Below, in pieces: positions 25,996-50,500 of a stretch of 64,000 bases of DNA. The stretch is from Eledone cirrhosa (Eukaryota), in contig OZ024741.1 in the NCBI GenBank assembly GCA_964016885.1, forward strand, positions 405,976,001-406,040,000, given 5' to 3'. How positions within the stretch are numbered: position 1 is the first letter of the stretch; the number at the start of each line of letters is the position of its first letter. The notes under the pieces were generated by a model. That model saw only the letters and a list, made by a program, of their open reading frames with translations. It ran no database searches and was not told the DNA's origin. The position numbers and the translations under genes were made by a program.

Positions 25996-26422
25996 TACCC
26001 ATCTGCCAGATAGTTGAACGTTCGAAAGTATATACTTTCCTTATGAAAATTAACGGCTGAGCAGCCTAATTTGCATATTGAGTGAGTTAAATCGGTCAGG
26101 CATACCGAAAACGATAAATTGAAACAAAATGAAAACGAAATTTCATTTCTCACTCTTAGTATGGCACTTACTTAAATGTAAGTATGCATGTACACGTACA
26201 TACATATATGTATACAGACGTACAGTAGCACGCACATATATATATATATATACATATATACATACATATGCATACAGGTACACATACATATATGCACGTA
26301 TCAGTTTAGCGGCGCTTATTATAACGTCGCTTTGTTCGTTTGTAAACAAACTGAACAGCCTGAATTTATGCCATACGGTGTTAAGGCAACCACGTCACCT
26401 TTTTGTTCAACACTGACACAGG

Positions 26423-26467
26423 AACGATGTACTAGTTTCAAGCTTGTTAGCTATCATCAGCACCGTT
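26423..26467 (-). ncRNA. Minimal type I hammerhead (unit 2)
   Basis: Identical to 25951-25995, 472 nt away. Confidence 0.85.
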
Positions 26468-26766
26468 TACCCATCTGCCAGATAGTTGAACGTTCGAAAG
26501 TATATACTTTCCTTATGAAAATTAACGGCTGAGCAGCCTAATTTGCATATTGAGTGAGTTAAATCGGTCAGGCATACCGAAAACGATAAATTGAAACAAA
26601 ATGAAAACGAAATCTCACCTCTCACTCCCAGTATGGCACAGCTTTGTAGAATTAGCTTTTAATGAATTCCCTTTTCTATCAACCAATGACCTGCACCCAT
26701 CCAACTCCCCACCCTCTCCTACCACTTGTAGAGACCTATAAATACCATATTTATTTTTTGATACCC

Positions 26767-27654: not shown

Positions 27655-28790
27655 TTTTGAGTCTCGAATAATCGTCCCCACACCCCTTATTAATTTTTCA
27701 GATATTTTCCTACCCGTCCACCCCCGCTCTTATTCCACACCCCCTCCTATTAATTTTTGATAATCTATCTCCGGCGATATTTTATTCCTAGTGGTAGCCA
27801 TTCCTGCAACAATTTTCTACATTACTAGAAATCCCATAAAATATATAGAATAGGTTGGGGTCTCTGTAAACTAAACGTTTAATTCTGGTTTTGTTTGTTT
27901 TTTTAATCAACGGAGACAACTTAGAAAAATTACCGATTTTCCACCCCAACCCCCGCGCATATCCGCCCCCGTGCTTATTCTAAACCCCCGCACTTATTCT
28001 AACTTATTCTACCCCCCCCTCTAATTCTAAACCACCCCCACTTATTGTAACCCCTGCACTTATTCTAACCCCCACTTATTCTACCCCCCCCCCGCACTTA
28101 TTATAACCCCCCCCTTTATTCTAACCGCCCACTTATTTTAAACCCTACTCTTATTCTAACTTATTCTAAACCCCCCACTTATGCTAACCCCCGCACTTAT
28201 TCTGCCTCCCCCCTATTCTAACCCCCGCACTTATTCTAACCCCCCCCCACTTATGCTAACCCCCGCACTTGTTCTGCTCCCCCTCTATTCTAACCGCCGC
28301 ACATATTCTAACCCCCCCCCACACACACACTTATTTTAACCCCCCACGTATGCTAACCCCCGCACTTATTCTGCCCCCCTATTCTAACCACCGCACTTAT
28401 TGTAACCCACTCCCCACACTTATTTTAAACCCCCCACTTATGCTAACCCCCGCACTTATTCTGACCCCCCCCCCTATTCTAACCGCTCGCACTTATTCTA
28501 CCCTCCCCCCACACTTATTTTAAACCCCCACTTATGCTAACGCCCGCACTTATTCTGCCCCCCCCTATTCTAACCCCCGCACTTATTCTAACACCCCCCC
28601 CACTTATTTTAACCCCCCACTTATGCTAACTCCCGCACTTATTCTGCCCCCCCCCTATTCTAACCTACCTCACTTATTCTAAACCCCGCACTTATTCTAA
28701 ACCCCACACTTATTCACACACCCCACACACACACTTATTCCAATTCCCTCGTTTATTCCAACCCTCACTCCTCTTATTTCCAACACCACT
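27655..28790. repeat. C-rich minisatellite (motif CACTTATTCTAACCCCC, ~17-18 bp), possibly expanded subterminal repeats of a MITE
   Basis: Dense degenerate repeats at 27970-28790. Related TTATT/CCCC motifs from 27655. No matching right-hand TIR identified. Confidence 0.75.
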
Positions 28791-28859: not shown

Positions 28860-29598
28860 TTATTAGAAGGTTCCATTAGAAGGTTCCATTAGGTTTCATT
28901 AGAAGGTTCCATTAGAAGGTTCCATTAGGTTTCATTAGAAGGTTCCATTAGAAGGTTCCATTAGAAGGTTCCATTAGAAGGTTCCATTAGAAGGTTTCAT
29001 TAGAAGGTTCCATTAGAAGGTTCCATTAGAAGGTTTCATTAGAAGGTTCCATTAGAAGGTTTCATTAGAAGGTTCCATTAGAAGGTTCCATTAGAAGGTT
29101 CCATTAGAAGGTTTCATTAGAAGGTTCCATTAGAAGGTTTCATTAGAAGGTTCCATTAGAAGGTTCCATTAGAAGTTTCCATTAGGTTTCATTAGAAGGT
29201 TTCATTAGAAGGTTCCATTAGAAGGTTTCATTAGAAGGTTCCATTAGAAGGTTCCATTAGAAGGTTCCATTAGAAGGTTTCATTAGAAGGTTCCATTAGA
29301 AGGTTTCATTAGAAGGTTTCATTAGAAGGTTCCATTAGAAGGTTTCATTAGAAGGTTCCATTAGAAGGTTCCATTAGAAGGTTCCATTAGAAGGTTTCAT
29401 TAGAAGGTTCCATTAGAAGGTTTCATTAGAAGGTTCCATTAGAAGGTTTCATTAGAAGGTTTCATTAGAAGGTTCCATTAGAAGGTTTCATTAGAAGGTT
29501 CCATTAGAAGGTTTCATTAGAAGGTTTCATTAGAAGGTTCCATTAGAAGGTTTCATTAGAAGGTTTCATTAGAAGGTTCCATTAGAAGGTTTCATTAG
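28860..29598. repeat. 13-bp minisatellite TTAGAAGGTT(C/T)CA, ~56 copies
   Basis: Direct reading; two alternating variants and a few 10-bp deletion units. Confidence 0.97.
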
Positions 29599-29946
29599 AC
29601 TGTATGTTTCCAAGTATTTCTTCCATCTCTCGCAGACACCACTAATTATATCAACACCTTCAATATATTTAATAGTGAGTCTATTGAAAGTAACTTTGTT
29701 GCTTTATAAATAATACTAATATTTACCTCAGTCTATTTATTGCTAAAGCAAACATAAAATATTGAACATTTTCTACAAATATTTCGGTTATAATTTGGAA
29801 GTAAAGATTGGTTTGGGGGTTGTTTTTTGTGCTGATTTCTGGCGGTTTTGTGTGTTTTGAAGAGCACGAGTTAATTAACATAGTTTCTAATGCAAAGCTG
29901 GAAGATATGACTAAATCCCCGCCATCTACCTTTCTCTCATTCTATC

Positions 29947-29985: not shown

Positions 29986-30110
29986 GAGTAAAAGAGAGAG
30001 AGAGCGAGAAAGAGAAAGAGGCATACACACAGAGATAGATACATTGAGAGAGATAAATAGATAAGACGATAGATCGATAAGTATATATAGATATATAAAT
30101 AGATAGATAA

Positions 30111-30140
30111 CTTTCTTTTTATTTGCCACCAGGGCATCAA
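30111..30140 (-). mobile_element. 30-bp extreme 5'-truncated family-1 LINE 3' end inside degenerate (GATA)n
   Basis: CTTTCTTTTTATTTGCCACCAGGGCATCAA matches the 3' terminus at 36391-36419. Confidence 0.8.
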
Positions 30141-30182
30141 GACAAACAGACAGACAGAGAGACGGACAGATAGATACATATA

Positions 30183-33100
30183 TTTCTTTATTAGCCACAG
30201 GGGTGCACAAGAAAAGGGGACAAAACAAAGACATGCAAAGGATTTTACATACAGTCGTGTAAAAATATAAAACAAACAAATATAACAATCGAAATCCCCA
30301 ATAGGGGGGAAGCGCCACAAATGGGTTGTTTAATACCCCGTAGATAGAACAACCCTCAACTTCAGGAGCGTGTTGTGCAAGTGCTCCTTTCTTCCTTTTG
30401 CTCTCTTCTTCAACCTACAGGCTTATATACAAAAAAGGCCCAATCACTCGGGCTATTCTCGCCACATTCAGCCACCTTTCAGTAAATTTACTGGGGTGCA
30501 GTGCCTCTCTCTCCAGTCTGATTCTCCTTCTAAAGCGGTACTTAAAGAAGGGAATGGGTTTTTGTCCGGAGAGAAAGGCGTCTGTCCTCAGTCCTCTCAA
30601 TCTCGTCCACCATATAACCTCTTTCACCATAGCCGCTGCACAAGGGAAAAGCGCCTCTCTTTCGTTTTTGAAAGAAGTTGGCCGGTTTGATCCTTACTAT
30701 GGACACGGCAGTCAACTGCATTTGTCACATACGCGTAGTTCCACAGGTCGGTTACGCCGGGGCAGTGTACAATTGCGTGCAGGAAGGTTTCAATGTCCTG
30801 CGCGCATCTTGGACTCGTTCTCTTGGAAGGATCCCTGCCTGTAGATCCCTGTCCGTGCCTGTAGATCTTGTCACGAACTGGTAGAGCTCCTCGGTAGCAC
30901 TGCCAGGCCAGGGACCTCTGGAAGTTGACCACAGGTCCCGGACGGAAAGTCCTACCAAACAGACTGGTGAGCCCATCGTCTTCGACACCCAGAGTCTCTC
31001 CGAGCACGTCGTCACCCTTGTAACATACAATCCCTCTGTAGAATGTCGAAGTGGAGTTTCCACTGATTGCTGTGCCCGCTTGCCAGAGGACTGTGAGCGC
31101 CTGAGCGCATTCAATGTGCCAGGCGCCCATCATTTTCGATCTTTTCTTGACCCAAGACTGCAGCTCCGTCAGCGAGACAAGCTGCGGGAAAGCCTGTCTC
31201 ACAAACGGTGCCCACACCGGTTGGGGGTCGGTGAGGAATACCTGGAGTTGCTGCAGTCTCAGCATATGTTTACGCATCATCAGCCACGGTATTCCCAGCC
31301 CTCCGTTGGAAGGGTGCTGACAGCAGACGGATTTCCTCACCAGCGGAGCCTGCTTCTTCCACAGAAACTGGAAGAGCATGCGTTCCATCTTGGCGAGGTG
31401 TTCACGGGACAAGGCACGACAGTCAAGCGGTAGTAGATGATGGACGCTATGAAAGTGTTCGCCACCTCCGCTCGACCTTTCAATGACAGTTTGCACTCTG
31501 CCCACTTCTGGGTGAGCGCAAACACCTTGGCCGTGACCTCGTTCCAGTTTTTCTCCACCTGGAGGTCTGCACCGAACCAGAACCCGAGCAATTTCACCGG
31601 TCCGTCCGTCCAGCGTCCAACGACGCTGTCGGTCGTCATTGGTTTGCCTCTCCACGTACCGAGTTGCAAACCGACTGACTTGTCCTGGTTTAGTTTTGCT
31701 CCCGTCAGCGTTTCGTATTCTTTCAGTAAGTTGCCGATCATCCCGATTTCCAAGGTGCTCGACATCATTACTGTCACGTCGTCGGGATAAGCCGACGCCG
31801 CTTTTCGCAGTCTCGGTTCTAGAAGGATGCCCTGCAACAGCTCCAATTTCCGCAGTAGTGGCTCTAGAGTCAATACATACAGAATGGAGGAGAGAGGGCA
31901 GCCCTGTCGAATGGAACGCGTGATTGCGAACGGATCCGATAGGTAGCCGTTCACCTTGACGCTCGAGCAGATGCTGGTGTGCATCGTCTCGATCCAGCTT
32001 CTGAAACCGGGACCGAAACCGGCCGCCTTGAGAACCACTTCCAAATATCGATGGTCGACCCTGTTGAATGCCTTAGACTGATCCAAATTGATCAGACCCC
32101 CACCGAAGCCGGGTTTACTACCCACCCTCGCTATGATGTATCGCATGAGGTGGAGGTTGTCGTATATGGACCTGGTCGGGATTGCACACGTTTGCGCTTT
32201 CTCTACCAGGTTCTCGACGACAAGCGCCGACCTCGTCGCTAGGACCTTGGCCAAAATCTTTAACTCTGTGTTGAGCCGCGTTATGGGCCTGAAGTTGTTA
32301 ATTTCGTCCTCCTTGTTCTCGTCTTTCCTGATCAGCGTTACTACGCCCTTGCCTGCAGAACTGGGAATTCTCTCGTTCTGCTGCCAATTGCAGTAGACGG
32401 CTTCGAGGACGCCAGAGAACGAGTCCGGCATGCCTATGTAAAACTCATAGGGTAGACCATCTAGACCGGGTGACTTGCGTTTCCCGCAGCGGCCCAGAGC
32501 GTCCCGTATCTCAGTGTCCGTGATCGGTCTTTCACAGAACTCGCCGTCCGTGTTCGAGAGACGCAGCAAACCGTCGAAGTATGAACTAAAGTCCATTGCC
32601 CCGTTCGGCTCACCGTCGTTCTGCTCAAACAGTCGCGCAAAGTGCTGCTGAAAGGCCGCGCACATTCGCTTGAGGTCAAGTAGCACGCGTCCGTTTTGGT
32701 CTTTCAAAGACCGAATCGTAGACTTGTTGCCACTTTTTGCCTCCGCCACTCGGGCCCAACTGACAGCTTTCGCTCCTTCGTGTTTCGCGTTGAAGAACTG
32801 GTCCAGTGCCGTTCTCGACGCTAACACTCTAACCGTGTTGCCACTTCTAAGTGGGTGCTGGAGGGGTGTTGGGTGGGGTGGGGAAACATTTTAACAGGAC
32901 GCGGTTGATGGGTTTCTTGCAGGGGGTGCTCACGTCTAGCCAAAATTTATTTTTCATGTCACTATAGGTCTCCATAGAAACCCTTATAAGTTTAAGGTGT
33001 GGGGACGATTCTGCTTTGACGAAAGTTTTGCCCTCCGTCTCCACCTTGGGGTTTGGGGAGATGACCTCCATTAAACTCTTGTTGCTTGTGTTGATGTATG

Positions 33101-34836
33101 CGTATTGTTGTTTGTGTTTTTGTTGTGTTGTTTTAGTTTGTTGTTCGTCCGGGAGTTTTCTTTTTATGGTGGGTGCTTGTGTTTGGGGTTGTGTTGGTGT
33201 TGGTTTTGCTCTAGGGGGATGTTTGACTGTGGTGTTGTTTGTGTTGTTGGTTGTGTCTGTGGTTGTGTGTTGGTGTTGGTGATTGGAGTTTTGGGGGTTT
33301 TGTGGTATCTCTTTTTTTGTATTTTAGATTTCCGAGGCTCTCCTTCTTCTTCACTTAAAGAAGGGGAAGCAGCCTCATCTGTTGCTGAATAATCATCGTC
33401 AAGAGTGTAGTTGTGGTGTTTCGGTGTGTGTGTTTGTGGTAGTGTTTGATGGTGGGGCTGTGTTCATCAGGGGTGTTGTCTGTGTTTTTTCTGTTGTTGG
33501 TTGAGTGGCTGTTTGTTTTGGTGTGTTTGCTTGTTTCGTGAGTTGTTGTGGTGGTGGTCGTGGTTGTTTGGGTATTGGTGTTGGTAACGGTGTTTTCTTT
33601 TGTATTATTTTGGTTGACCGTGTTTGTAAAGGGCAGAAAGCCTTTAGGTGGTTGTGCTACCACAGCGAAAGCAATGAAATTTACGCCCCTCCACCGAAAT
33701 GTTTATTATGTTGTTGTCGTCGATGACGACTTTTTCGGGTATTTTGAAGATTCTCTCCGGCCTCATTTGCATCAGAATCTCCAAATCAGTACCCGCCCAC
33801 CTTTGTCTAATAGACTTTCGTATTGAAAGAATGGCATCAGTCTCTGGCTCTACGAAGCCAGCCACGATCCACCAGATGTTAATGTTTTTTTTTTTTGTGT
33901 GTCCTTTTTCCCATATACGTAGAGAAATAGGTGAATGCTTTTGACACCATTGGTGTCACAGAATGTTTTGGGGCGAGTGCCTCGCTTTTAAACAGTACGG
34001 AAATACTTCCGTACAGTTTTCCTCGTTGGAGAAAGTCAATATTTGCTAGAGTGTCCTTCAATGTGGCTTCTATGTCTGCTTGACTCACAAATATTGGCTT
34101 TCTCATTGTGTTGGAGACAGTCCTGAAGGTCACTGACCTTCGAACTGTCTCTTCTTTTATATCGAGGGGTGAGTTGATTCTAAACCCACCCTTGTCTTCG
34201 AAAGTTACAGATTTTCTCCCTTGCTGGAGCATATTTCTTGCATTGGAGATGTCAAGATTTATAAAATCTTGTTTTTTGTTCACTTTTTCAGCGAAAGACA
34301 TTATTTTTTGTGGTGTTGTTGTTATCGTTGTTAGCCTCGTTGTTGGAAATCGCAATTTCTTGACGAGGTGAAACTTTATGTGAAGATGTATCTATGGAGT
34401 TGTTGTTGTCTTTTTCATGTGTGTGTATATTAATAGGTTTAATTCCTGTGTTTTCCTGTGTGTTTTTTTTTCTCGCTTGGACAGTAGAAATTTTAAAATC
34501 TTAAAGTGGTGATATTAATTTTTTCTCTTATCCATGGCGACGTCCATAGTAGCAGAAGCAGATATAACGTTAATATCTGCCTCTCTACCTCTCTTCTCTC
34601 TGTCGACGTTCTCCGGCGTTCTTTCCGAGCTATTCATGTTTTATAGTTGGCAAAATTTGATATTTTAAAACAATTTTTAAATTAAATTTTCGCCACTAAA
34701 GGGGCGAAAATGGGATTACCACCCAGCTGACAATTCAGCTTGGCGGTTAATCTACAAAATGATATGTTTTTTCAAACAATTTGTTCAGTTTTTTGTATGG
34801 AAATTTACAAAAAAGCTTACCGGCGATGTTCCACGC

Positions 34837-34838
<2 letters not shown>
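30183..34838 (-). mobile_element. Tx1/L1-clade LINE, diverged family 2; 5' end retained but endonuclease region deleted; degraded
   Basis: 5' UTR next to (GATA)n at 34839; ORF1 fragments (33879-34355, 33644-33865 with VEGRKFHCFRCG); RT (KSPGLDG, NFRPI, DQSKAFNRV, SIRQGCPLS, AYPDD). ORF1 tail joins directly to the post-endonuclease region near 32845. Confidence 0.9.
30415..32827 (-). pseudogene. ORF2 remnant (RT plus C-terminal Cys/His domain) of the family-2 LINE
   Basis: ORFs 31337-32827, 30624-31655 and 30415-30630 in shifting frames. Confidence 0.9.

Positions 34839-34887
<49 letters not shown>
34839..34887. repeat. (GATA)n spacer between LINE copies
   Basis: Direct reading. Confidence 0.97.
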
Positions 34888-36322
34888 GAATTTTTTTATT
34901 AGCCACAAGGGCACAAAAGAAGGGGACAAATACAAATGGGGAGTTTACATACAGGTATGTGAAAATAAAACTATTAATACAATAACAAATAACGATTGAA
35001 ATCCCCAATAGGGGGGGGGGGTTACACAGGGGTTGTACACACCCCGAAAAAATGTACAACCCTCATCTCCAGGAGGACCAAGAGTGAGTACTCCCTTCCT
35101 CTCTTCCTCTTTTTCCTCAACCTACAGGCTTATATAGAGAGAAGGCCCAACCACTCGGGCCATCTTTGCCACATTCACCCACCTTTTATAAAATTTGCTG
35201 GATTACAGCACCTCTCTCTCTATGCTGATTCTTCTTCCAAAATAATATTTGAAAAAACGGATCAGTTGCTCGCCGGAGAGAAAGGTGTCTGACCTCAGCC
35301 CATTTAACCTCGTCCACCATATAACCTCTTTCACCATAGCCATAACACAAAGGAAAACCGCCTCTCCCTCGTTTTTTAAGGAGGGTGGCGGTTTCATCAT
35401 GACAATGGACTCGGTGGTCAACTGGATTGGTCCCACCCGCGACAATAGTTGTTCTACATAGCCCCACAGGTCGGTAACGCCCGGGCAGTGTACAAATGCG
35501 TGTGCGATGGTTTCCTCGTCGCGCACGCATCTCGGACAGATCTTTTTCGAAGGGTCCCTACCCGGGCGCCCGTGTCTGTAGAGCTTGTCTCGAACTGGTA
35601 GAGCTCCTCGGTAGTACTGCCAGGCCAGGGACTTTTGGAAGTTGTCCATTGGTCCCGGGCGGAAGGTCCTACCGAACAGACTGGCCAGTTCGTCCTCCTC
35701 TACTCCTAGAGTTTCTCCGAGCGTGTTGTCGCACTTGCTGCGGACCAACCCTCTATAGAATGTCGAAGTGGAGTCTCCACTGATCGCCGGGTCTGGTTGC
35801 CAGAGGACTGTGAGCGCCTGAGCACATTCGATGTGCCAGTCGCCAATTTTCCTCAGTCTTTGCTTGACCTAGGACTGCAGCTCGGTCAGCGAGACGAGTC
35901 GTGGGAAGGCTCGCCTCACGAACGGGGCCCACACCGGTTGTCTGGTGAGAAATACGTGGAGGTGCCGCAGGCTGGGCGCCTGTTTGCGCATCGTCAGCCA
36001 CGGCATCCCCAGCCCTCCGTTTGAAAGGTGTTGGCAGCAGATGGAACTACTCACCAAAGGAGCCCGCTTCTTCCTAAGGAATTGGAAGAGCACGCGCTCC
36101 ATTTTGGTGAGCGTTTTGGCTGACAAGGCACAACGGTCAAGCGGTAGTAGATTACGGACGCTATAAAAGTATTCGCCACCTCCGCTCGACCTTTCAAGGA
36201 TAGTTTGCACTCGGCCCACTTCTGGGTGAGCGCAAACACCTTGGCCGTCACCTCGTTCCAGTTCTTCTTCACCTGGAGGTTAGGACCAAACCAGACCCCG
36301 AGCAGCTTTACCGGTCCTTCCG
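34888..36322 (-). mobile_element. 5'-truncated Tx1/L1-clade LINE (family 3)
   Basis: ORF2 C-terminal fragments (EGPVKLLGVWFG..CPRCVRDEETIAHAFVHC); 3' UTR ends GTGGCTAATAAAAAAATTC then (ATCT)n. Confidence 0.93.
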
Positions 36323-36325
36323 ATT

Positions 36326-36389
<64 letters not shown>

Positions 36390-36390
36390 T
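36326..36390. repeat. (GATA)n spacer between LINE copies
   Basis: Direct reading. Confidence 0.97.
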
Positions 36391-36653
36391 GTTTCTTTTA
36401 TTTGCCACCAGGGCATCAAAAGCGGGACAAGTACAATGGGGGGAGTTTACAAAACAAGGCGTCCTCAATAAGGAGGAGGCAATAAGAATATATAAAAATA
36501 AAATAAAATATAACAAAAAATAAAATTTATAACAAAGTCCTCAATAGAGAGGAGGCGCCTTGGGGGGTCGCACACACCCCCGAAAAAAGTGTGCAACCCT
36601 TTTCCTCGGGAGCACAGAGAAGGGGTGCTCCCTTGGTCTTTCATCTTCTTCAC

Positions 36654-39600
36654 CTATAGTCTGATGTAGAGTGAAGGCCCATTCACACGGGCCATTATCG
36701 CCACTTTCACCCATCTTTCATAAAAACGGCTGGGGTGCAGCACCTCTCTCTCCACCCTGATCCAATGATATTGGAAGAAACGGACCAGTTGTTGGCCAGA
36801 GAGAAAGGTGTCTGACCTCAGTCCTTTCAGACGCGTCCACCATACAACCTCTTTCGCCATGGCTATTACGCACAGAAACACCGCCTCTTCTTCGTTTTTG
36901 AAGAGGGGAGGCGGCTTGATCGTTACAATAGACTCGGTGGTCAACCGGATCGTTCCCACCCTTGACAGCAGTTGTTCGACATAGCTCCACAGATCGGCAA
37001 TGCCCGAGCAGTGTACCAATGCGTGTGCAACGGTTTCCTCGTCGCACACGCATCTGGGACAGATCTTTTTCGAGGGGTCCCTACCCGGGAGCCCGTGTCT
37101 GTAGAGCCTTTCTCGAACGGGCAGAGCCCTTCTGTAACATTGCACACTCGGTGTGCCAGACGCCCAGTTTTCTCGGTCTTTGCTTGACCCAGGATTGCAG
37201 CTCGGTGAGTGAGACGAGTCTGGGAAAGGCTCGCCTCACAAACGGGGCCCACACCGGTTGACCGGAGAGGAATACCTGAAGGTGGCGTAGCCTTAATGCG
37301 TGTTTACATATCATTAGCCACGGCATCCCCAGCGCTCCTTTCGAAGGGTGTTGACAGCAGATGGATCTTCTCACCATAGGAGTCCGCTCCTTCCAAAGGA
37401 ATTGGAAGAGTGCGCGCTCCATTTTGGCGAGCGTTTCCCTTCGGCAAGGCACAACGGTCAGGCGGTAGTAGATGACGGACGCGATATAAGTGTTCGCCAC
37501 CTCTGCCCAACCTTTCAGGGACAGTTTGCACTCGGCCCACTTCTGGGTCAGTGCAAACACCCTGTTCGTTACCTCACCCCAGTTCTTCTCCACCTGGAGG
37601 TCTGGTCCGAACCAGACCCCGAGCAACTTCACCGGGCCCTCCGTCCAGCGCCCGACGACGCCATCGGAGGGCATCGATCTGCCCTCCACGTGCCGAGTTG
37701 CAGACCGATCGACTTGTCCCGGTTCAGCTTAGCCCCTGTAAACCTTTCGTACTCCTCCAGTAAGGTGCCGATCGCCCCGATTTCCGAGGCCGTCGACACC
37801 ATTACTGTTACGTCATCGGCGTAGGCTGACACCGCTTTCCGCAATTCCGGTTCCAACAGGATGCCCTGCAACAACTCCAACTTCCGCAGCAGTGGCTCTA
37901 GAGTCATTACATACAGAAGGGAGGAGAGAGGGCACCCCTGTCGGATGGACCGCGCGATTTCGAACGGCTCCGAGAGGTAGCCGTTCACCTTGACCCTAGA
38001 GCAGATGCGGCTGCTGTACATGGCATTGATCCAGCCCCTGAAACACGGTCCGAAGCCTGCCGCCGCTTACACCGCATCCAGGTAACCATGGTTGACCCTA
38101 TCGAATGCCTTAGATTGATCCAAGTTGATCGGGGCCCCACCAAAGCCGGGTTCGTTCCCAACCCTCTCTATGATGTATCGCATGAGGTGGAGGTTGTCGT
38201 GGATGGACCTGGACGGGATAGCACAAGTCTGCGCATCTCCCACCAGGTTGCCCACGACAAGCGCCAACCTCTTTGCTAACACCTTGGCCAAAATCTGTAA
38301 CTCTGTATTTACCAGAGTTATGGGCCTGAAATTATTTATATCGTCCCCCTTGTTCTAGTCCTTCCTCACTAGCGTGACTACGCCCTTGGTCACAGCACAG
38401 GGAATTCTCCCGTTCTGTTGCCAGTTGCAGTAGACCGCCTCGAGGATATCGGGGAACAAGTCCGGCATAGCTAGATATAGTTCGTATGGAAGACCATCGA
38501 GACCCGGGGATTTGCGTTTGCCGCATTGGCTCAGCACGTCCTCTATCTCAGCGGCTGAAATCGGCTCCTCGCAGGACTTCGCCTCCCTGTCCGAGAGATG
38601 CGGCAGGCCGTCGAGGTATGGACCGAAGTCCACATCCCCAACCGGCCCCCCGCCCCTTCCGAACAATCCGGCAAAGTGCTTTTGAAAAGCCTCGCACATC
38701 TGCTTAGGTTCAAGGATCACTCGTCCATCCTGGTCTCGCAAAGATCGGATAGTGGATTTGCTCCCTCTTTTGGCTTCTGTCACGCGGGCCGAGCTAACAG
38801 CTTTGGTCCCCTCGTTTCCCAGAGCACGTATTTTTCTTCGTACCATGCAGCCTTCGTGTTTCGCGTCGAAGAACTGGCCCAGGGCCGTTCTCGACGCTAG
38901 CACTCTGGCCACGTCGCCGCTTCTAATTGCCTCTTCTACACTATCTACCAACTCCCTTTCCTTCCTATTTCTATTTGAGGCTAACTCCTTACTAAATTCT
39001 ATAGAGACTACTCTAATCTCTCTTTTGAGAGATCCCCACCACCTGCTGTTGACGATGGCGCCTGTCAACCGCTCCTTAACTAAAGTGCTAATCCGGTCCC
39101 TGTAAGCCTTAATTGCCGGTAAGGACAAGTTGAGCTTCTACTAACCGGGTCCTTGTCTATGAGTTCTTTCAAGGTTGACCATGCAGGTCACTAACTTGTG
39201 GTCTGAATAGCCAACCATGCGCATTTTCGGACAACTTAAAAAGTCCTTACCTTAATTCTAACTAAGAACCTATCTAGGTACGACCTAGATGATCCGCTAC
39301 GATTTGCCCAAGTCCAGGTTGGCGCAGTCGGAAAATCTAGTCGATATCTATCGGCCAGGTCAAATCGACCGATTAACCCTTTGAGGCTATTACACCCCTC
39401 TCTATCGGGACAGGCCCCTACGTAGTCCCAGCGTGCAACTAGGATACCATTCCAGTCCCCCACTAATAGCAAGGAGCGGGACGTCCCTAAAAAAGTCTCC
39501 AGACGATGGAAGAAGTCCGGCCGCATTGACCCGAAAGGGCCGGAGGCGGCTACCAACCTAAACGCTCCGCCTTTACCACTGCCAATGTCCAGAACCACTA

Positions 39601-39877
39601 GTCGACCCTCTGGGACGAAATGTACCATCTGTGTTGCGAGACCCAGATGTTTTTGCAGCAGAACGACAACTCCACCCCCACCTCCGGGCTGACAGAGAGA
39701 TGCGTGCATCTCAAAGTCATCAAAGGTGGGGGCCAGCTGTCGCACGTTGCTGATCCGGGCCTCGCAAATAACCATCACATATATACGTTGTGACCTGAGG
39801 TCATTTAGAAGCATTGCTTGCTTCCAAGTTGAGCCCAGGCCACGCGCATTTAAACGGCCTACTCTTAGCATAGCCAT
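36654..39877 (-). pseudogene. ORF2 (APE endonuclease, RT, C-terminal Cys/His domain), disrupted
   Basis: LNARGL, GDWN, SYLDRFL; KSPGLDG, DQSKAFDRV, IRQGCPLS, YADD; CPRC..HALVHC across several frames. Confidence 0.93.
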
Positions 39878-39901
39878 GTTGGTGGTGAAGAGAAAAGGCA
39901 C

Positions 39902-41680
39902 TTACCTCTCTGCGTCCCGGGTATCGGGCTGCACAATTTCCATTAGGGTGGGGGATGGGTTGTTGGGTGGGGTGGTGGTTTGTGGAAGTGTAGGGGCATC
40001 AGTGTTTTGTGTGGTTGGGGAGTTTGTAGTTGTGTGGGTGTTTGGGGAGGGGGTGGGGTAGTTTTTTTAGAAGGACGTGGTTAATGGGCCCGATGCAGGG
40101 GGGACCCACGTCCTCTTTAAAGTTGTTTTTTATAGTTTTATAAGTGTCCTGTGGGGCCTTAATCATTTTGAGGTGGGGGAAATCCCCTGCCTGGGTGAAG
40201 TTAGGCCCTTGTGTTTTTATTAGATTGTTGTTGTACACAATGTTTAACAGTTTTTTTGTTTCTTGTGTTTATGTATGTGTATGCATGTTTTTGTTTTTGT
40301 GTGGTGTTTTTTGTTTGCTGTTGTTGTGAGCTCTTTTGTGTTGGTGTCAGTGTTATGTTTTGGGGAGGGTTTTTTTTCATTTGTGTGTCTGAGGTGTGTT
40401 TTCTTTTTTTTTTCTTTTGATTGTTTGGAAGTGCTCCTCCTCGTCTAACGACGAACTAGGGTCATCTTCCGCGTTGGAGGGGAGGGGTATATTTTCGGGT
40501 TGTGTTTGCGGTGCGGGTGTTTTGGAAATTGTTTTTGTTTTTTGAGTGGAGGGGATGGGTTGGACATTGTTTTGTTTTGGTTTGAGCTGTGGTTGTTGTT
40601 TTTGTAGTGGTAGTTGTGGTGATTGTGTTGGTTGTGCAGTTGTTGGTGGTGTAGGCAGGATTGGGGTTTTCTTATCAAGTTGGGGACAGACAGCCCTCAG
40701 GTGACCTCTGGTTCCGCAGAGGTAACACGAGGGCCGTCTACCCTCAACGGTAATGTTGATGAAAGTTTGATCATCCAGTATGACGCGTTCAGGGATCTGG
40801 GCGATCCTTTCGGGCCTCATTTGAACTACAATTTCGAGGCTCGTTCCACTGAACGCGTCACCCGATGCCTTTCCCATGGACACCAGCGTGTCATTATCCA
40901 GGTTCAGGAAACCTGTCAAAACCCACCATATGTCCATAATCGGCAGGATGGTGTGGATTTTTATTTTTTGTGTTCTTCTACCCATGTACGTAGGGTAGAA
41001 GGTGTATGCGGTGGAAGTGATTGGTTTGATGGACAGTTTCACTGCTGTGTCCCTGTCCTTCATGAGAATGGATAGACTCCCGTAGAGTCTATCTTTCTGA
41101 ATGAAGGTGATGTCCTTCATGACGTCTTTTAAAACCAGCTCTATCTCACTCTGTGATGGTTGATCTGGTTTTTTGCTTTTATTTGGGACTGTCCTAAACA
41201 TGACAGTGTTTAGGAGTCTCTGGCTTTTTAGTTCGGGGGGGGGGGGGAATGGATCGTGAATGAACCATTTTCCCCGTACACTATATATTTTTTGGCATCT
41301 GCCAATAGCTCCTTCGCTTTGGTTATATCTACTGGCAGATAGTCGAGGATTTTCCTTGCCGTCTGGGCGAAGGAGACCCTTTCCCTGCTTGTGTTGCTGT
41401 TGTAGTTGGTGGTGTTGTTGTTATCACAGTTATTGGTCTTGTTGTTGTTGTTATTGTTATTGGTGTTGTTTTCGTCCGTCGCATTGTTGTTGTTGCTGGT
41501 GCCGCTGGTTCTTTGGTTTGTTGCCATGGCAACGTCAAGTTGTCGGTCAGCAGGTGGAGAAAATCCTTCCTCTAGCTGACCTTTGTTTTTGACCTCTGCT
41601 ACTGTGACAGTGGCAGGGGGAAGCTGTAAGTTCAGCTTCCCCTTTCCTCCTTCGAATTTTGGTGAAGAAGCTTCAGCCAT
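39902..41680 (-). pseudogene. ORF1 (gag-like, CCHC zinc knuckle), frameshifted
   Basis: Fragments 41228-41680, 40377-41201 (CYLCGTRGHLRAVC) and 39999-40238; breaks fall in homopolymer runs. Confidence 0.9.
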
Positions 41681-41906
41681 TTTTTAAAATGTTAACTTTT
41701 CAACAAAAAAAAATTTTTTGTTTAACTATTTCGCCTAAAGGCGTAGAATATTTTGAGAGACTGACCAGATCAAAGTTTGACCTGGCAGTCCCTCTACAAA
41801 ATGGTACATAAATTAAAGTTTACAGAGAAGAATTTCTATAGAAATTTAAACAGAACTTACTCAGCAATGTTATACGCGTGTGTCCATCCCAGAGATAGAT
41901 AGATAT

Positions 41907-42935
41907 GTTTCTTTTATTTGCCACTAGGGCATCAAAAGTGGGACAAGTACAAAGGGGGGAGTTTACACAAAAAGGCGTCCTCAATAAGGAGGAGGCAATA
42001 ACAAAATATAAAAATAAAATAAAATATAACAAAAAATAAAATTTATAACAAAATCCTCAATAGAGAGGAGGCGCCTTGGGGGGTCGCACACACCCCCGAA
42101 AAAAGTGTGCAACCCTTCTCCTCAGGAGCACAGAGAAGGGGTGCTCCCTTGGTCTTTCATCTTCCTTACCTATAGTCTGATGTAGAGTGAAGGCCCATTC
42201 ACACGGGCCATTCTCGCCACTTTCACCCATCTTTCATAGAAACGGCTGGGGTGCAGCACCTCTCTCTCCATCCTGATCCTTCTTCCGAAATGATATCGGA
42301 AGAAACGGACCAGTTGTTGGCCAGAGAGAAAGGTGCCTGACCTCAGTCCTTTCAGACGCGTCCACCATACAACCTCTTTCGCCATGGCTATTACGCACAG
42401 AAACACCGCCTCTGCTTCATCTTTGAAGGGGGGAGGCGGCTTGATCATTACAATAGACTCGGTGGTCAACCGGATCGGTCCCACCCTTGACAGCAGTTGT
42501 TCGACATAGCCCCACAGATCGGCTACGCCCGAGCAGTGTACCAATGCGTGTGCAACGGTTTCCTCGTCGCACACGCATCTGGGACAGATCTTTTTGGCGG
42601 GGTCCCTACCCGGGCGCCCGTGTCTGTAGAGCCTTTCTCGAACGGGTAAAGCCCCTCGGTAGCACTGCCAGGCCAGGGACTTCTGGAAGTTGTCCATAGG
42701 TCCCGGGCTGAATGTCCTACCGAACAGGCTGGCCAGTTCGTCCTCCTCCATGTCTAGGGCTTCTCCGAGGGTGTCGTCGCACCTGCTGCGTACCAGCCCT
42801 CTATAGAATGTTGCGGTGGAGTCTCCACTGATAACCGGATCCGCCTGCCAGAGGGCGGTGAGCGCCTGGGCACACTCAGTGTGCCAGGCGCCCAGTTTTC
42901 TCGGTCTTTGCTTGACCCAGGATTGCAGCTCGGTG

Positions 42936-42937
<2 letters not shown>
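41907..42937 (-). mobile_element. 5'-truncated Tx1/L1-clade LINE (family 1), nearly identical to the 3' part of the 45.5-51.3 kb copy
   Basis: ORF 42170-43015 (TELQSWVKQRPRK..NGPSLYIRL); flanked by GATA repeats on both sides. Confidence 0.95.
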
Positions 42938-42968
<31 letters not shown>

Positions 42969-42970
42969 TA

Positions 42971-43799
42971 TTTCTTAATTAGCCACAGGGGCACAAAAGA
43001 AGGGGACAAATACAAAGGGGGAAGTTTACATACAATAAAAACGTGTAAAATGTTATCACAGATGGAATTTAAAAGTTAGTCGATTTTCCCCAATAGAGGG
43101 AGACAGTTTATATGGGTAACACAGACCCCCGAAAAAAAATGTGCAACCCTCATCTCCAGGAGTACGAAGAGCTTGTACTCCTTTCCTCTCCTCCTCCTTT
43201 TCCTCAACCTACAGGCTGATATAGAGAGAAGGCCCATTCACTCGGGCCATTCTCGCCACTTTCACCCACCTTTCATAAAACTTGCTGGGGTACAGCACCT
43301 CTCTCTCCATCCTGATTCTTCTTCCAAAGTGGTATTTGAAAAAAAGAATCAGTTGTTGGCCGGAGAGAAAGGTGTCTGACCTCAGCCCTTTCAACCTTGT
43401 CCACCATACAACCTCTTTCGCCATAGCTATCACACAAAGGAAAACCGCCTCTCCTTCGTTTTTGAAGGAGGGTGGCGGTTTGATCATGACAATGGACTCG
43501 GTGGTCAACTGGATTGGTCCCACCCGCGACAATAGTCGTTCTACATAGCCCCACAGGTCAGTGACGCCCGGGCAGTGTATGAATGCGTGCGCGACGGTTT
43601 CTTCGTCTCGCACGCACCTCGGACAGATCTTTTTTGCAGGGTCCCTGCCCGGGCGCCCATGTCTGTAGAGCTTGTCTCGAACTGGTAGAGCTCCTCGGTA
43701 GCACTGCCAGGCCAGGGACTTTTGGAAGTTGTCCATCGGTCCCGGGCGGAAGGTCCTACCGAACAGACTGGCCAGTTCATCTTCCTCTACGCCTAGAGT

Positions 43800-43800
<1 letters not shown>
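42971..43800 (-). mobile_element. 5'-truncated Tx1/L1-clade LINE (family 3)
   Basis: ORF 43209-43859 (TLGVEEDELASLFG..NGPSLYISL); 3' UTR like the 34888 copy; (GATA)n at 42938-42970 and 43801-43854. Confidence 0.95.
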
Positions 43801-43854
<54 letters not shown>

Positions 43855-44253: not shown

Positions 44254-44810
44254 ATGTTTATAACTGATTCAAAGCACTCGATAAGTTTTCTGGAGTATAA
44301 TATTCAAACAAACCAAGATAGCAATAATAATATTTCTAACAACAATATTCATAATAATAGTACCGTTCCTAGTAACAACAACTCAAGAAAATGTAACTGT
44401 AGAATTAAATCAAACTGCCCTTTACAAAATAATTGCTTAGACAAAAACGTAATTTATAAATGCACAGTTAAAACTAGAGACAAAATATTTAACTATATAG
44501 GTGCCACTACGACAAAATTCAAAGAACGCTGTACAACCATAAACATACATTTAATAGGTCCGATAAAAATCTTCCACTTAACTTTCACATTTAATTTGGA
44601 ATTTAAAAGACAACAATATAGACTATTCAATATCTTGGGAAACGATTTCGAAAGCACCTGCATACCGAAATATGGCTTTCTCAAGAATCTGTCATTTGTG
44701 TATCGATGAAATTTTTTATATAATTAACTGTCAAAACTCTATTAATCTTAAAACATAATTATTTTCTAGTTGCAGATATCACCAAAATTCCACTTTCAGA
44801 AGTATTTTTA
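44254..44810 (+). pseudogene. Penelope-like element GIY-YIG endonuclease remnant
   Basis: CNCRIKSNCPLQNNCLDKNVIYKCTV..NYIGATTTKFKER. After a frameshift: LSHLIWNLKDNNIDYSISWETI..ICHLCIDE. This matches the Cys-rich/GIY-YIG C-terminus of Penelope-like ORFs. Confidence 0.85.
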
Positions 44811-45773
44811 ACTTATGATATTCATTACACTTGACTATATCTTATACACCTTTAAAATGATCCAATTATTTACTAAATATTTCTTTAAAAATAAAAATTG
44901 TTTTTTTAAATGATCTTCCTTCTTAATTTTAATATTTTTACCATTTGACATTCTTTTCCTCTTCTAAATCTATTTTTTTAGATGTAGATTGATAATCTTT
45001 AATTGACATTCTGAAAGATATCCTCTTTACGATAGTTCTTCGAAATGTATAATACATTTTTCCCTCATTTTTGAACTTCAAACTTTTCACACATCTTTCG
45101 ACTAAATAATATATAATTGAAACTCTCATCCTTGAAAAAATTAATTTCACACAAAATAATATATAATTTTCTCTGCATACTTTCTGAGTAAATCATTCAT
45201 CAAATTTGACTGTTAGCAAATAAGATTGGAGTTATCTTTTCCTTTACAATTGAGCAAACATAAACATTATAACATGTATGATAAACTATATAACTTCGCT
45301 AAATTAACAATATTCTGAAAGCATTTTCAACGTTGGAACAAAATATTTGAATCTACAAATTGTTCTCCTCTTACAACTTGAACTACGTCTTTTTCTTAAA
45401 TTTTTTTATGTAAAATGCAAAATCAACATCCTTCGTAACTCATATCATAAATATAAACAACTAATAATTGTGATTTATTTCTATAAAATCACCAATAATA
45501 CTTATACTTGCACATTTATTAATCTATATAGATATTTATATACTTCTCTCTATCTACCTATCTTGGGATGGACACACGCGTATAACTTGCTGAGTAAGTT
45601 CTGTTTAAATTTCTATAGAAATCCTTGTCTGATAACTTTAATTTTTGTACCATTTTGTAGAGGGACTGCCAGGTCAAACTTTGATCTGGTCAGTCTCTCA
45701 AAATATTCTACGCCTTTAGGCGAAATAGTTAAAAAAAAAAGTTTTTTCTTGTTGAAAAGTCAATATTTTTTAA

Positions 45774-47567
45774 ATGGCCGAAGCTTCTTCACCAAAATTC
45801 GAAGGAGGAAAGGGGAAGCTGAACTTACAGCTTCCCCCTGCCACTGTCACAGTAGCAGAGGTCAAGAAGAAAGGTCAGCCAGAGGAAGAATTCTCTCCAC
45901 CTGTTAACCAACAAATTGACGTTGCCATGGCAACAACCCAAAGAACCAGCAGCAACAGCAACAACAACAACAATGCGACGGACGAAAACAACACCAATAA
46001 CAATAACAATAACAACAACAAGACCAATAACGGTGACAGCAACAACAATGATAACAACAACACCACCAACGACAACAACAACACAAACAAACAAAATTTC
46101 TCCTTCGCCGAGACGACAAGGAAAACCCTCGACTATCTGCCAGTAGATATAACAAAAGCGAAGGAGCTACTGGCGGATGCGAAAAAATATATAGTGTACG
46201 GAGAAAATGGTTCATTCACAATCCATCCCCCCCCCCCGGAACTAAAAAGCCAGAGACTCCTAAACACGGTCATGTTTAGGACAATCTCGAACAAAAGTAA
46301 AAAACCAGCTCAACCATTACAGAGCGAGATAGAGCTGGTTTTAAAAGACGTCATGAAGGACATCACCTTCATTCAGAAGAATAGACTCTACGGGAGTCTA
46401 TCCATTCTCATGAAGGACAGGGACACAGCAGTGAAACTGTCCATCAAACCAATCACATCCACCGCATACACCTTCTACCCTACGTACATGGGTAGAAGAA
46501 CACAAAAAATAAAAATCCACACCATCCTGCCGATTATGGACATATGGTGGGTTTTGACAGGTTTTCTGGACCTGGAGGATGACATGCTGGTGTCCATGGG
46601 AAAGGCATCGGGTGACGCGTTCAGTGGAACGAGCCTCGAACTTGTAGTTGAAATGAGGCCCGAAAGGATCGCCCAGATCCCTGAACGCGTCATACTGGAT
46701 GATCTAACCTTCATCAACATTACCGTTGAGGGTAGACGGCCCTCGTGTTACCTCTGCGGAACCAGAGGTCACCTGAGGGCTGTCTGTCTCCAACTTAATA
46801 AGAAAACCCCAATCCTGCCTACACCACCAACAACTGCACAACCAACACAATCACCACAACTACCACTACAAAAACAACCACCACAGCTCAAACCAAAACA
46901 AAACAATGTCCAACCCATCCCCTCCACTCAAAAAACAAAAACAATTTCCAAAACACCCGTACCGCAAACACAACCCGAAAATATACCCCTCCCCTCCAAC
47001 GCGGAAGATGACCCTAGTTCGTCGTCAGACGAGGAGGAGCACTTCCAAACAATCAAAAGAAAAAAAAGAAAACACACCTCAGACACACAAATGAAAAAAA
47101 ACCCTCCCCAAAACATAACACTGACACCAACACAAAAGAGCTCACAACAACAGCAAACAAAAAACACCACACAAAAACAAAAACATGCATACACATACAT
47201 AAATACAAGAAACAAAAAACTGTTAAACATTGTGTACAACAACAATCTAATAAAAACACAAGGGCCTAACTTCACCCAGGCAGGGGATTTCCCCCACCTC
47301 AAAATGATTAAGGCCCCACAGGACACCTATAAAACTTTAAAAAACAATTTTAAAGAGGACGTGGGTCCCCCCTGCGTCGGGCCCATTAACCGCGTCCTCC
47401 TAAAAAACTATCCCACTCCCTCCCCAAACACCCACACAACTCCAAGCTCCCCAACCACACAACACACTGATGCCCCCACACTTCCACAAACCACCACCCC
47501 ACCCAACAACCCATCCCCCACCCTAATGGAAATTGTGCAGCCCGATACCCGGGACGCAGAGAGGTAA
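45774..47567 (+). CDS. LINE ORF1 protein, 597 aa: Asn-rich N-terminus, central domain, CCHC zinc knuckle, Pro/Thr/Gln-rich tail
   Basis: Uninterrupted ATG-TAA frame; CYLCGTRGHLRAVC knuckle; located upstream of ORF2. Confidence 0.92.
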   Translation: MAEASSPKFEGGKGKLNLQLPPATVTVAEVKKKGQPEEEFSPPVNQQIDVAMATTQRTSSNSNNNNNATDENNTNNNNNNNNKTNNGDSNNNDNNNTTNDNNNTNKQNFSFAETTRKTLDYLPVDITKAKELLADAKKYIVYGENGSFTIHPPPPELKSQRLLNTVMFRTISNKSKKPAQPLQSEIELVLKDVMKDITFIQKNRLYGSLSILMKDRDTAVKLSIKPITSTAYTFYPTYMGRRTQKIKIHTILPIMDIWWVLTGFLDLEDDMLVSMGKASGDAFSGTSLELVVEMRPERIAQIPERVILDDLTFINITVEGRRPSCYLCGTRGHLRAVCLQLNKKTPILPTPPTTAQPTQSPQLPLQKQPPQLKPKQNNVQPIPSTQKTKTISKTPVPQTQPENIPLPSNAEDDPSSSSDEEEHFQTIKRKKRKHTSDTQMKKNPPQNITLTPTQKSSQQQQTKNTTQKQKHAYTYINTRNKKLLNIVYNNNLIKTQGPNFTQAGDFPHLKMIKAPQDTYKTLKNNFKEDVGPPCVGPINRVLLKNYPTPSPNTHTTPSSPTTQHTDAPTLPQTTTPPNNPSPTLMEIVQPDTRDAER

Positions 47568-47591
47568 GTGCCTTTTCTCTTCACCACCAAC

Positions 47592-50500
47592 ATGGCTATG
47601 CTAAGAGTAGGCTGTTTAAATGCGCGTGGCCTGGGCTCAACTTGGAAGCAAGCAATGCTTCTAAATGACCTCAGGTCACAACGTATAGATGTGATGGTTA
47701 TTTGCGAGGCCCGGATCAGCAACGTGCGACAGCTGGCCCCCACCTTTGATGACTTTGAGATGCACGCATCTCTCTGTCAGCCCGGAGGTGGGGGTGGAGT
47801 TGTCGTTCTGCTGCAAAAACATCTGGGTCTCGCAACACAGATGGAACATTTGGACCCGGAGGGTCGACTAGTGGTTCTGGACCTTGGCAGTGGTAAAGGC
47901 GGAGCGTTTAGGTTGGTAGCCGCCTACGGCCCTTTCGGGTCAATGCGGCCGGACTTCTTCCATCGTCTGGAGACTTTTCTAGGGACGTCCCGCTCCTTGC
48001 TATTAGTGGGGGACTGGAATGGTATCCTAGATGCACGCTGGGACTACGTAGGGGCCTGCCCTGATAGAGAGGGGTGTAATATCCTCAAAGGGTTAATCGG
48101 TCGATTTGACCTGGCCGATAGATATCGACTAGATTTTCCGACTGCGCCAACCTGGACTTGGGCAAATCGTAGCGGATCATCTAGGTCGTACCTAGATAGG
48201 TTCTTAGTTAGAATTAAGGATAAGGACTTTTTAAGTTGTCCAAAAATGCGCATGGTTGGCTATTCAGACCACAAATTAGTGACCTGCATGGTCAACCTTG
48301 ACAGAACTCATAGACAGGGCCCCGGTTACTGGAAGCTCAACTTGTCCTTGCCGGCAAGTAGAGCCTACATGAATCGGATTAGTACGTTAGTTAAGGAACG
48401 GTTGACTGGAGCGATCGTCAACAGCAGGTGGTGGGTATCTCTAAAGAGAGAGATTAGAGTAGTCTCGATAGAATTTAGTAAGGTTCTAGCTGCGGATAGG
48501 AATAGGAAGGAAAGGGAGCTAATAGATAGAGTAGAAGAGGCAATTAGAAGCGGCGACGTGGCCAGAGTGCTAGCGTCGAGAACGGCTTTGAGCCAGTTTT
48601 TCGACGCGAAGCACGAAGGCTGCGTTGTCCGAAGTAAAATACGTGCTCTAGGGAACGAGGGGACCAAAGCTGTTAGCTCGGCCCGCGTGACAGAGGCCAA
48701 CAGTGGAACTAAATCCACCATCCGGTCTTTGCGAGACCTGGATGGACGGGCGATTCTTGAGCCTAAGCAGATGTGTGAGGCCTTTCAAAGGCACTTTGCC
48801 CGACTGTTCGGGAGGGGCGGGGAGCCGGTTGGGAACGTGGACTTCGGTCCATACCTCGACGGCCTGCCGCGCCTCTCGGACAGGGAGGCGAAGTCCTGCG
48901 AGGAGCCGATTTCGGCCGCTGAGATAGAGGACGTGCTGAGCCAATGCGGCAAACGCAAATCCCCGGGTCTCGATGGTTTTCCTTACGAATTATATCTAGC
49001 TATGCCGGACTTGTTCCCCGATCTCCTCGAGGCGGTCTACTGCAACTGGCAACAGAACGGGAGAATTCCCTGTACTGTGACCAAGGGCGTAGTCACGCTA
49101 GTGAGGAAGGACGAGAACAAGGGGGACGAAATAAGTAACTTCAGGCCCATATCTCTGCTAAATACAGAGTTACAGATTTTGGCCAAGGTGCTAGCAAAGA
49201 GGTTGGCGCTTGTCGTGGGCAACCTGGTGGGAAATGCGCAGACATGCGCTATCCCGTCCAGGTCCATCCATGACAACCTCCACCTCATGCGATACATCAT
49301 AGAGAGGGTTGGGAACGAACCCGGCTTTGGTGGGGCTCTGATCAACTTGGATCCATCTAAGGCGTTCGATAGGGTCGACCATGGTTACCTGGATGCGGTG
49401 CTAGCGGCGGCAGGCTTCGGACCCGTTTTCAGGGGCTGGATCACTGCTATGCACAGCAGCCGCATCTGCTCTAGGGTCAAGGTGAACGGCTACCTCTCGG
49501 AGCCGTTCAAAATCGCGCGGTCCATCCGACGTAGGGTGCCCTCTCTCCTCCCTTCTGTATGTGTTGACTCTCGAGCCACTACTGCGGAAGTTGGAGTTGT
49601 TGCAGGGCATCCCTTTGGAACCGGGATTGCGGAAAGCGGTGTCGGCCTACGCCGATGACGTGACATTAATGGTGTCGACGGCCTCCGAAATCGAGGCGGT
49701 CGGCACCTTACTGGAGGAGTACGAAAAGTTCACAGGGGCTAAGCTGAACCGGGACAAGTCGATCGGTTTGCAACTCGGCACGTGGAGGGGCAAACCGATG
49801 CCCTCCGATGGCGTCGTCGGACGCTGGACGGAGGGCCCGCTGAAGTTGCTCGGGGTCTGGTTCGGACCGGACCTCCAGGTGGAGAAAAACTGGGCGGAGG
49901 TTACGAACAGGGTGTTTGCACTGACCCAGAAGTGGGCCAGTTGCAAACTATCCCTGAAAGGTCGGGCGGAGGTGGCGAACACCTACATAGCGTCCGTCAT
50001 CTACTACCGCCTGACCGTAGTGCCCTGCCCAAGGGAAACCCTCACCAAGATGGAGCGCGCGCTCTTTCAATTCCTTTGGAAGAGGCGGGCTCCTATGGTG
50101 AGGAGATCCATCTGCTGTCAACACCCTTCGAAAGGAGGGCTGGGGATGCCGTGGCTAATGATGCGTAAACACGCATTAAGGCTACGGCACCTCTACGTAT
50201 TCCTCACCGGACAACCGGTGTGGGCCTCGTTTGTGAGACGAACCTTTCCCAGACTCGTCTCACTCACCGAGCTGCAATCCTGGGTCAAGCAAAGACCGAG
50301 AAAACTGGGCGCCTGGCACACTGAGTGTGCCCAGGCGCTCACCGCCCTCTGGCAGGCGGATCCGGTTATCAGTGGAGACTCCACCGCAACATTCTATAGA
50401 GGGCTGGTACGCAGCAGGTGCGACGACGCCCTCGGTGAAGCCCTAGACATGGAGGAGGACGAACTGGCCAGCCTGTTCGGTAGGACATTCAGCCCGGGAC

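Follow-up and report, generated by a model that had tools for sequence, protein, structure and literature searches.

Tx1-like LINE families of Eledone cirrhosa sit at TATC motifs and stack in one orientation within GATA microsatellites

Target-primed reverse transcription is established for long interspersed nuclear elements (LINEs) of the apurinic/apyrimidinic endonuclease (APE) type. Within the Tx1 clade, the microsatellite targets that we found in print are (TC)n, (TTC)n, (TTCC)n and (TTTC)n, and the closest described systems, Kibi and Koshi of teleost fish and the Tx1 families of crocodilians, are APE-type elements that prefer such repeats (PMC4494074). Microsatellite-specific elements lacking long terminal repeats (non-LTR elements) from other clades use ACAY, AC, TAA and TG units (PMC3812793, PMC4640811), and tandem copies with a duplicated target between them, read as the product of sequential insertion, have been described for SINEU-3/Tx1-Mar and Utopia (PMC4494074, PMC4640811). 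A non-LTR family has been counted as target-specific when one sequence type occupies more than 20% of its flanks (PMC4494074), and the molecular basis on which APE-type elements choose microsatellites has been called poorly understood (PMC3812793). Here we describe a stack of six LINE insertions in a 64,000-nucleotide stretch of the Eledone cirrhosa genome (GenBank assembly GCA_964016885.1, contig OZ024741.1, positions 405,976,001 to 406,040,000; hereafter the window), and report that copies of two of the families concerned, A and B, sit at a TATC motif in one orientation, genome-wide and in thousands.

The stack consists of six minus-strand pieces of APE-reverse transcriptase (RT) LINEs, none of which is interrupted by another. 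It is flanked on its left, the 3′ side in element orientation, by degenerate GATA repeat (30037-30110). Insertion 1 (30111-30140) is a 30-bp 3′ stub of family A type, 93-97% identical to family A 3′ ends over 29 bp, and a degenerate GATA/GACA spacer (30141-30182) divides it from insertion 2 (30183-34838). The latter, of family C, retains its 5′ region and comprises 5′ untranslated region (UTR) and open reading frame 1 (ORF1) remnants, a broken RT and a 3′ UTR; its frames are broken, and an internal deletion of ∼1.1 kb takes out the APE region. A (GATA)12 spacer (34839-34887) precedes insertion 3 (34888-36325), a 5′-truncated family B copy of 1,438 bp, and a (GATA)16 spacer (36326-36390) precedes insertion 4 (36391-41891), a 5′-complete family A copy with an internal deletion of ∼220 bp and ORFs disrupted by stops and frameshifts (93.8% identical to a family A copy at 45565). 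The short GATA spacer that follows (41892-41906) includes the ATCTCT-like 5′ leader of insertion 4. Insertion 5 (41907-42937) is a 5′-truncated family A copy of 1,031 bp, recent given its 99.3% identity to the copy at 45565. Beyond a (GATA)8 spacer (42938-42970), insertion 6 (42971-43800) is a 5′-truncated 830-bp copy of another family B subfamily, and (GATA)13 (43801-43854) forms the upstream flank of the stack. Delimited as repeat runs, the GATA sequence is perfect at 34837-34887, 36322-36389, 42936-42968 and 43800-43854, and degenerate at 30033-30109 and 30140-30174. All 3′ ends lack poly(A) and pass from AATAAA (AATTAA at 42971) through a few bases into TAT(C/G/A)T sequence.

The 5′ ends differ from piece to piece. 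Identity is 94% between the pieces at 36391 and 41907 (main 762-bp block), 87% between those at 34888 and 42971, and 69-81% between the coding blocks of the piece at 30183 and the others. Given these differences in family, identity (69-99%) and truncation point, the six pieces are independent insertions, and tandem duplication as the origin of the stack is ruled out. We infer that all six entered one original microsatellite. In the contigs of four sequencing runs the locus was neither bridged nor seen as an empty site, and these data are uninformative. A first-pass annotation of the window had proposed this arrangement, and on re-reading the insertions, their spacers and, in all stack pieces compared, the absence of poly(A) were as it described. 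Its three families hold by 3′-UTR type, but the two family B copies belong to different subfamilies; it also left out two plus-strand family A copies outside GATA (at 21687 and 45565), and the APE domain from 47592 to which it pointed belongs to the second of these, not to the stack.

Copy numbers were taken as counts of exact end patterns across the genome, which are lower bounds: 2,531 for family A 3′ ends, 6,259 for family B 3′ ends and 360 for family A 5′ ends. The family A end continues into TATCTATC in 1,592 cases and into TATATATA in 162, or ∼63% and ∼6% of ends; these percentages are slight overestimates because the family A sequence searched for in the numerator, ahead of one A/T base and the repeat, was slightly shorter than that of the 2,531 count. 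The order is reversed in the background, sampled as 10-kb stretches at 20 evenly spaced places on contigs C1 and C2, with 26 positions of TATCTATC against 5,752 of TATATATA (the latter ∼220-fold commoner), or 7 arrays against 270. Relative to TA, TATC is thereby preferred ∼2,200-fold when counted by position and ∼380-fold when counted by array; taking the background count at its upper 95% bound still gives at least 1,480 and at least 180, respectively. Among the first 71 consecutively listed family A copies, positions 2 to 4 of the 3′ flank read TAT and position 6 reads T in all 71, position 5 is C in 59, A in 11 and T in one, and TATCTATC follows the element end in 38. Most of 30 family B flanks are likewise of ATCT type. 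The target is thus TAT(C/A)T, with TATCTAT as its best form, and the preference is strong and extends to sites outside microsatellites. The proposal in the first-pass annotation that (TATC)n is targeted strand-specifically stands as to orientation and enrichment over background; the target itself is not strictly (GATA)n. With ∼63% of its ends in TATCTATC, family A exceeds the 20% of flanks by which target-specific families have been recognized; it also has target sequence on both sides, duplication and a fixed orientation. Three family A copies (L207, L243, L013) adjoin long (CTAC)n runs near TATC, which suggests either that TACC variants are tolerated or that the repeat turned over once the element was in place.

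To the 5′ side, 69 family A copies have a resolved end (L013 and L023, with ambiguous 5′ ends, were excluded); 57 of them are truncated, of which 45 lack an upstream element end. A TATC 8-mer occurs within 40 nt upstream in 18 of these 45 solo truncated copies, against 26 of 9,960 background windows, and the GATA orientation in none of the 45 and none of the 69. Target duplications were sought in 108 two-ended copies, namely the 69, 38 of 40 fetched full-length copies chosen by their 5′ end (the other two, L206 and L210, lacked a 3′ end within range) and the window copy. The test, anchored on non-repeat letters, replaced a criterion of being longer than any cross-match, which was too strict near TATC arrays (7 of 69). 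Duplications of 9-20 bp that include non-repeat letters were found in 16 of the 108 copies against 117 of 11,556 shuffled pairs (∼1%); allowing one mismatch, the figures are 23 of 108 and 8 of 400 controls. The duplication begins with TATCTAT in 10 of the 16 and at flank position 1 or 2 in 15, and none of 15 anchored duplications carries surplus TATC units on the 3′ side relative to the 5′ side. Upstream TATC, together with anchored duplications lacking extra 3′ units, means that the motif predates insertion and is not added as a tail. The TATC motif is therefore target, not tail, and duplication of the target, as the first-pass annotation had supposed, is seen directly.

Copies of these families also share sites with one another. 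Across the initial 87 Mb of C1, where 172 family A and B ends are listed, we counted 32 neighbouring pairs no more than 7 kb apart, against 2.3 expected. Every one of the 32 is on a single strand, whereas more distant pairs split 76 of 139 by strand. A neighbour of the same lineage lies across the repeat from 33 of 69 family A copies, and no downstream neighbour in opposite orientation was seen among the 69. Sequences that recur after TATC runs are the 5′ ends of further related families, and another 3′-UTR type has TATCT next in five of five cases; at least five families therefore share the target. The exact 3′ end of family C (∼71% identical to family A in amino acids) occurs once in the genome, hence its target was not sampled by pattern. 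With a per-side neighbour rate of 0.30 and 8,790 copies, ∼16 chains of six or more are expected genome-wide, so that the six-member stack is ordinary for these families and lies in the expected tail of the distribution.

A sister family in the same genome, F, has ORF2 67% identical to that of family A and 3,501 exact 3′ ends, and runs mostly into (TTA)n, occasionally into (CTA)n or (TTC)n. TATCT was absent from all 30 family F flanks sampled, TTA repeats lie upstream of several truncated copies, and the targets of A and F are mutually exclusive in our samples. Family F copies (L084, L246-L275, L277-L284) also form head-to-tail arrays with ∼6.05 kb spacing.

TATC lies upstream of 28 of 30 full-length 5′ ends, most of which are preceded by an ATCTCT-like run ahead of the conserved start, and in several (L116, L232, L233, L105 and the copy at 45565) an ATCT-like leader of 9-24 nt stands between the duplication and the element. 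Transcription of full-length RNA appears to begin in the upstream repeat, so that units of it are taken along, and template slippage may be an alternative source of the leaders.

These APE-type LINEs lie at TAT(C/A)T, mostly in (TATC)n, in one orientation and with duplications of 9-20 bp, and we consider it likely that this is because their endonuclease nicks the GATA-reading strand there and primes reverse transcription. Judged from the junctions, the GATA strand would be nicked first, somewhere in the opening bases of TATCT; from the freed 3′-OH an RNA terminating a few nucleotides after AATAAA would be copied, with priming probably aided by short pairing with read-through target bases. A second nick ∼15 bp away would duplicate three to five repeat units and so leave an array on both sides, and a full-length RNA beginning within the upstream repeat would bring a few ATCT units with it. 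With these sites shared by at least five related families, stacks would grow head-to-tail by repeated independent hits.

Several observations weigh against this reading. Specificity is loose, with ∼6% of family A ends in (TA)n and ∼30% in other TAT(C/A)T contexts, and the background sample is limited to 200 kb of two contigs. No TATC 8-mer lies upstream of 27 of the 45 solo truncated copies; some of these sit in TA or non-repeat sites and do have duplications, in many no duplication can be detected, and we assume later deletion as the cause of the missing TATC. Across the duplication sample, too, many copies show none, and duplications inside pure arrays are mostly impossible to delimit. Even among the 16 anchored cases, L081 probably reflects a TA run and microhomology, and L232 and L233 are probably one duplicated event. 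The APE hairpin loop, placed by alignment to L1 residues T192-S202 (PMC1950540), differs between F and A at two of 11 positions and between A and D, a TATC-targeting family, at three of 11. The loop thus fails to track the target and does not explain the switch between A and F, which leaves the endonuclease a putative determinant of target choice. As the sole determinant of the target, the loop is ruled out.

A possible, though clearly less probable, alternative is that it is mainly the RNA that sets the target: the transcript would read into downstream (ATCT)n, nicks would fall loosely in TA-rich DNA, and only primers that pair with the RNA would be extended, so that a change of repeat would need little change in the protein. 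Family F fits this account, its ORF2 being 67% identical to that of A and its loop near-identical while it uses (TTA)n and never, in the 30 flanks, TATCT. Furthermore, the first base past the conserved end (in L213 the second too) differs from the pre-insertion site, so that the RNA supplies the bases up to the junction, and pairing between RNA and primer has been proposed for RTE and other LINEs (PMC6007223). However, pairing of a long repeat tail in alternative registers would be expected to leave surplus 3′ units, which none of the 15 anchored duplications has; position 5 follows the site, be it C, A or T; and the common start of 15 of 16 duplications is what a defined nick would give. In addition, the Tx1L endonuclease nicks its own target almost exclusively in vitro (PMC1950540). 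RNA pairing and endonuclease nicking at the motif can both contribute.

We regard it as very unlikely that the element itself encodes (ATCT)n as a 3′ tail, in the manner of RTE and CR1, with stacks arising from elements landing behind each other's tails. The continuation of ∼63% of family A ends into TATCTATC could be taken this way, as could L025 and L094, which have 3′ TATC runs and no 5′ repeat, and L242, whose 3′ side shows six TATC units within (TA)n. Against such a tail, TATC stands upstream of solo truncated copies (the 18 of 45, which bear out an expectation of the first-pass annotation), non-repeat duplications abut the element end with no units added, and copies in TA or unique sites are tail-free (21687 and 45565 in the window). 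The absence of extra 3′ units from all 15 anchored duplications largely refutes an RTE/CR1-type tail. Random insertion with passive retention in repeats, or an artefact of assembly or tandem duplication, is barely credible: passive accumulation near microsatellites is on record for Drosophila Waldo-A and Waldo-B (PMC3812793) and no reads span the stack, but the junction motif, exact to the base in 71 of 71 copies and in one orientation, refutes random insertion, the stack is made up of pieces unlike one another in family, identity and truncation point, and sister family F has a different, equally exact motif.

The genome holds intact ORF2s of 1,153-1,156 aa, which, aligned to human L1 ORF2, retain the APE catalytic motifs N, E, Y, GDWN, D and SDH. 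Of the ORF2 domains, the APE matches Pfam Exo_endo_phos (E 3e-8), RVT_1 is above cut-off, and zf-RVT (E 1e-5) falls just under it, at 26.5 bits against 27.5. The best PDB match of ORF2 is L1 ORF2 (E 2e-43). A single-sequence fold of the APE domain gave a predicted local distance difference test (pLDDT) score of 31.7, too low for use. The separate ORF1 has a visible CX2CX4HX4C motif and no Pfam match. N-terminal APE, non-LTR RT and C-terminal CCHC domain in ORF2, with a separate ORF1, are traits of the Tx1 clade (L1 group). We provisionally place the families there on this domain content and on an RT proxy tree, computed from 44 rows by a quick method and free of named Repbase Tx1 families and vertebrate L1 rows. 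In that tree the lineage is a strongly supported clade within a wider 29-row group that includes U2- and U1-flanked elements (Shimodaira-Hasegawa-like approximate likelihood ratio test (SH-aLRT) 95), apart from plant L1-like, fungal and Phallusia rows. Among named homologues the closest comes from Argonauta hians, with 65% identity across the RT region, and the next group is ∼50% identical. Metagenome relatives are mostly 24-32% identical, and two closer ones (L181 and L192, 42-47%) have no TATC flank in the stretches read. Among metagenome elements, L176 (4675-4885) and L178 (5815-5977) end at U2 small nuclear RNA (snRNA), and L180 (9202-9356) ends at U1 snRNA.

Two more distant relatives with a similar AATAAA end (L139, 5400-9050, minus strand; L103, 1450-1900) run into TTATTAG(TAG)n and CATTATTGTCATC, one copy thus entering TAG-rich repeats, hinting at further microsatellite targets in the lineage; the exact 3′-end pattern of the L103 element occurs once, so its target was not sampled by pattern. 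It is tempting, if distinctly speculative and in our estimate rather improbable as a whole, to picture an octopod Tx1-like lineage that has diversified into distinct microsatellite niches of a single genome (five or more families at TATC, the sister with 67% identical ORF2 at TTA, and a third at TAG-rich repeats), which would switch mainly through RNA ends and not through the hairpin, and would make its own targets as ATCT leaders and site duplication seed GATA arrays, its TATCT core perhaps derived from the U2 target of Keno.

Elsewhere in the window, a separate 5′-truncated family A copy on the plus strand (21687-22939) runs into (TA)n, not GATA. A full-length plus-strand family A copy outside GATA arrays (45565-51293) has ORF1 at 45774-47567 with a CCHC knuckle and ORF2 at 47568-51030 (APE, RT, zf-RVT) with one frameshift in RT. 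It is flanked by a 9-bp TATATACTT duplication, whose first copy and a 19-nt ATCT-like leader occupy 45537-45564 and whose second copy lies at 51295-51303; the leader is not present on the 3′ side. Directly left of the stack are two minisatellites (28002-28726 and 28862-29599, units of ∼18 and ∼13 bp), and minisatellites with TATCT-like units host several family A copies elsewhere (L027, L091, L092, L213, L232). Positions 1-19112 are a satellite array (35-bp unit, ∼546 copies, 95% matches), and 25697-26639 is a tandem duplication of two 472-bp copies (98% matches). Two ORF fragments at 44254-44709 (plus) and 55865-56407 (minus) resemble each other and, we presume, the C-terminal nuclease region of Penelope-like elements; further ORF fragments at 20231-20873 look like a decayed mariner-type transposase.

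The genome supplies thousands of junctions, intact ORF2s and a natural A/F pair for separating endonuclease from RNA-pairing determinants, and the sister family that uses another repeat is the added value of this system. GATA microsatellites here are hot spots for multi-kilobase insertions, which bears on markers, assembly and repeat annotation in cephalopods. L1-Tx1 elements have expanded in coleoids (PMC8967140), and for Octopus vulgaris 13 such families are given as recently active (PMC13282606); these coleoid families may be of the same lineage. The words "target" and "GATA" are absent from the main text of PMC13282606, and the available portions of PMC8967140 (coleoids) and PMC10294476 (molluscs) make no mention of L1-Tx1 insertion targets. 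In the open literature as far as it was available, which does not cover Repbase and Dfam, we found neither a TATC- or GATA-targeting LINE nor a microsatellite-targeting Tx1 element of cephalopods. TATC is thus probably a target not yet described for an otherwise known kind of site-specific element; the surprise is limited, as Tx1-type microsatellite targeting and tandem arrays are already known.

L176 and L178, which are U2-flanked by Rfam and which we take as Keno-like, belong to the same 29-row RT group (SH-aLRT 95) and end at GTATCTGTT, sharing TATCT at positions 2-6 with the junction here. Their RTs, however, are only 36-37% identical to those here, their tails are poly(A)-like, and their target is a gene. 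No U2 continuation was seen by eye in the 3′ flanks of either family (71 for A and 30 for B), on which no Rfam scan was run, so that the U2 snRNA insertion of Keno is not found here and only the TATCT core is common, which may be coincidence. The SINEU-3/Tx1-Mar and Utopia arrays resemble the stack in layout, but their target is a transposon or the U2 gene, whereas here several families share a microsatellite (PMC4494074, PMC4640811). Waldo and Mino (R1 clade), Dong and Togen are microsatellite-specific as well, Waldo providing a tetranucleotide precedent, and belong to other clades or lineages with other repeat units. Kibi and Koshi remain the nearest parallel: their targets are (TC)n and (TTC)n, whereas family A flanks read TAT(C/A)T, and the families of E. 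cirrhosa, at (TATC)n and TATCTAT, differ from them in target and in host.

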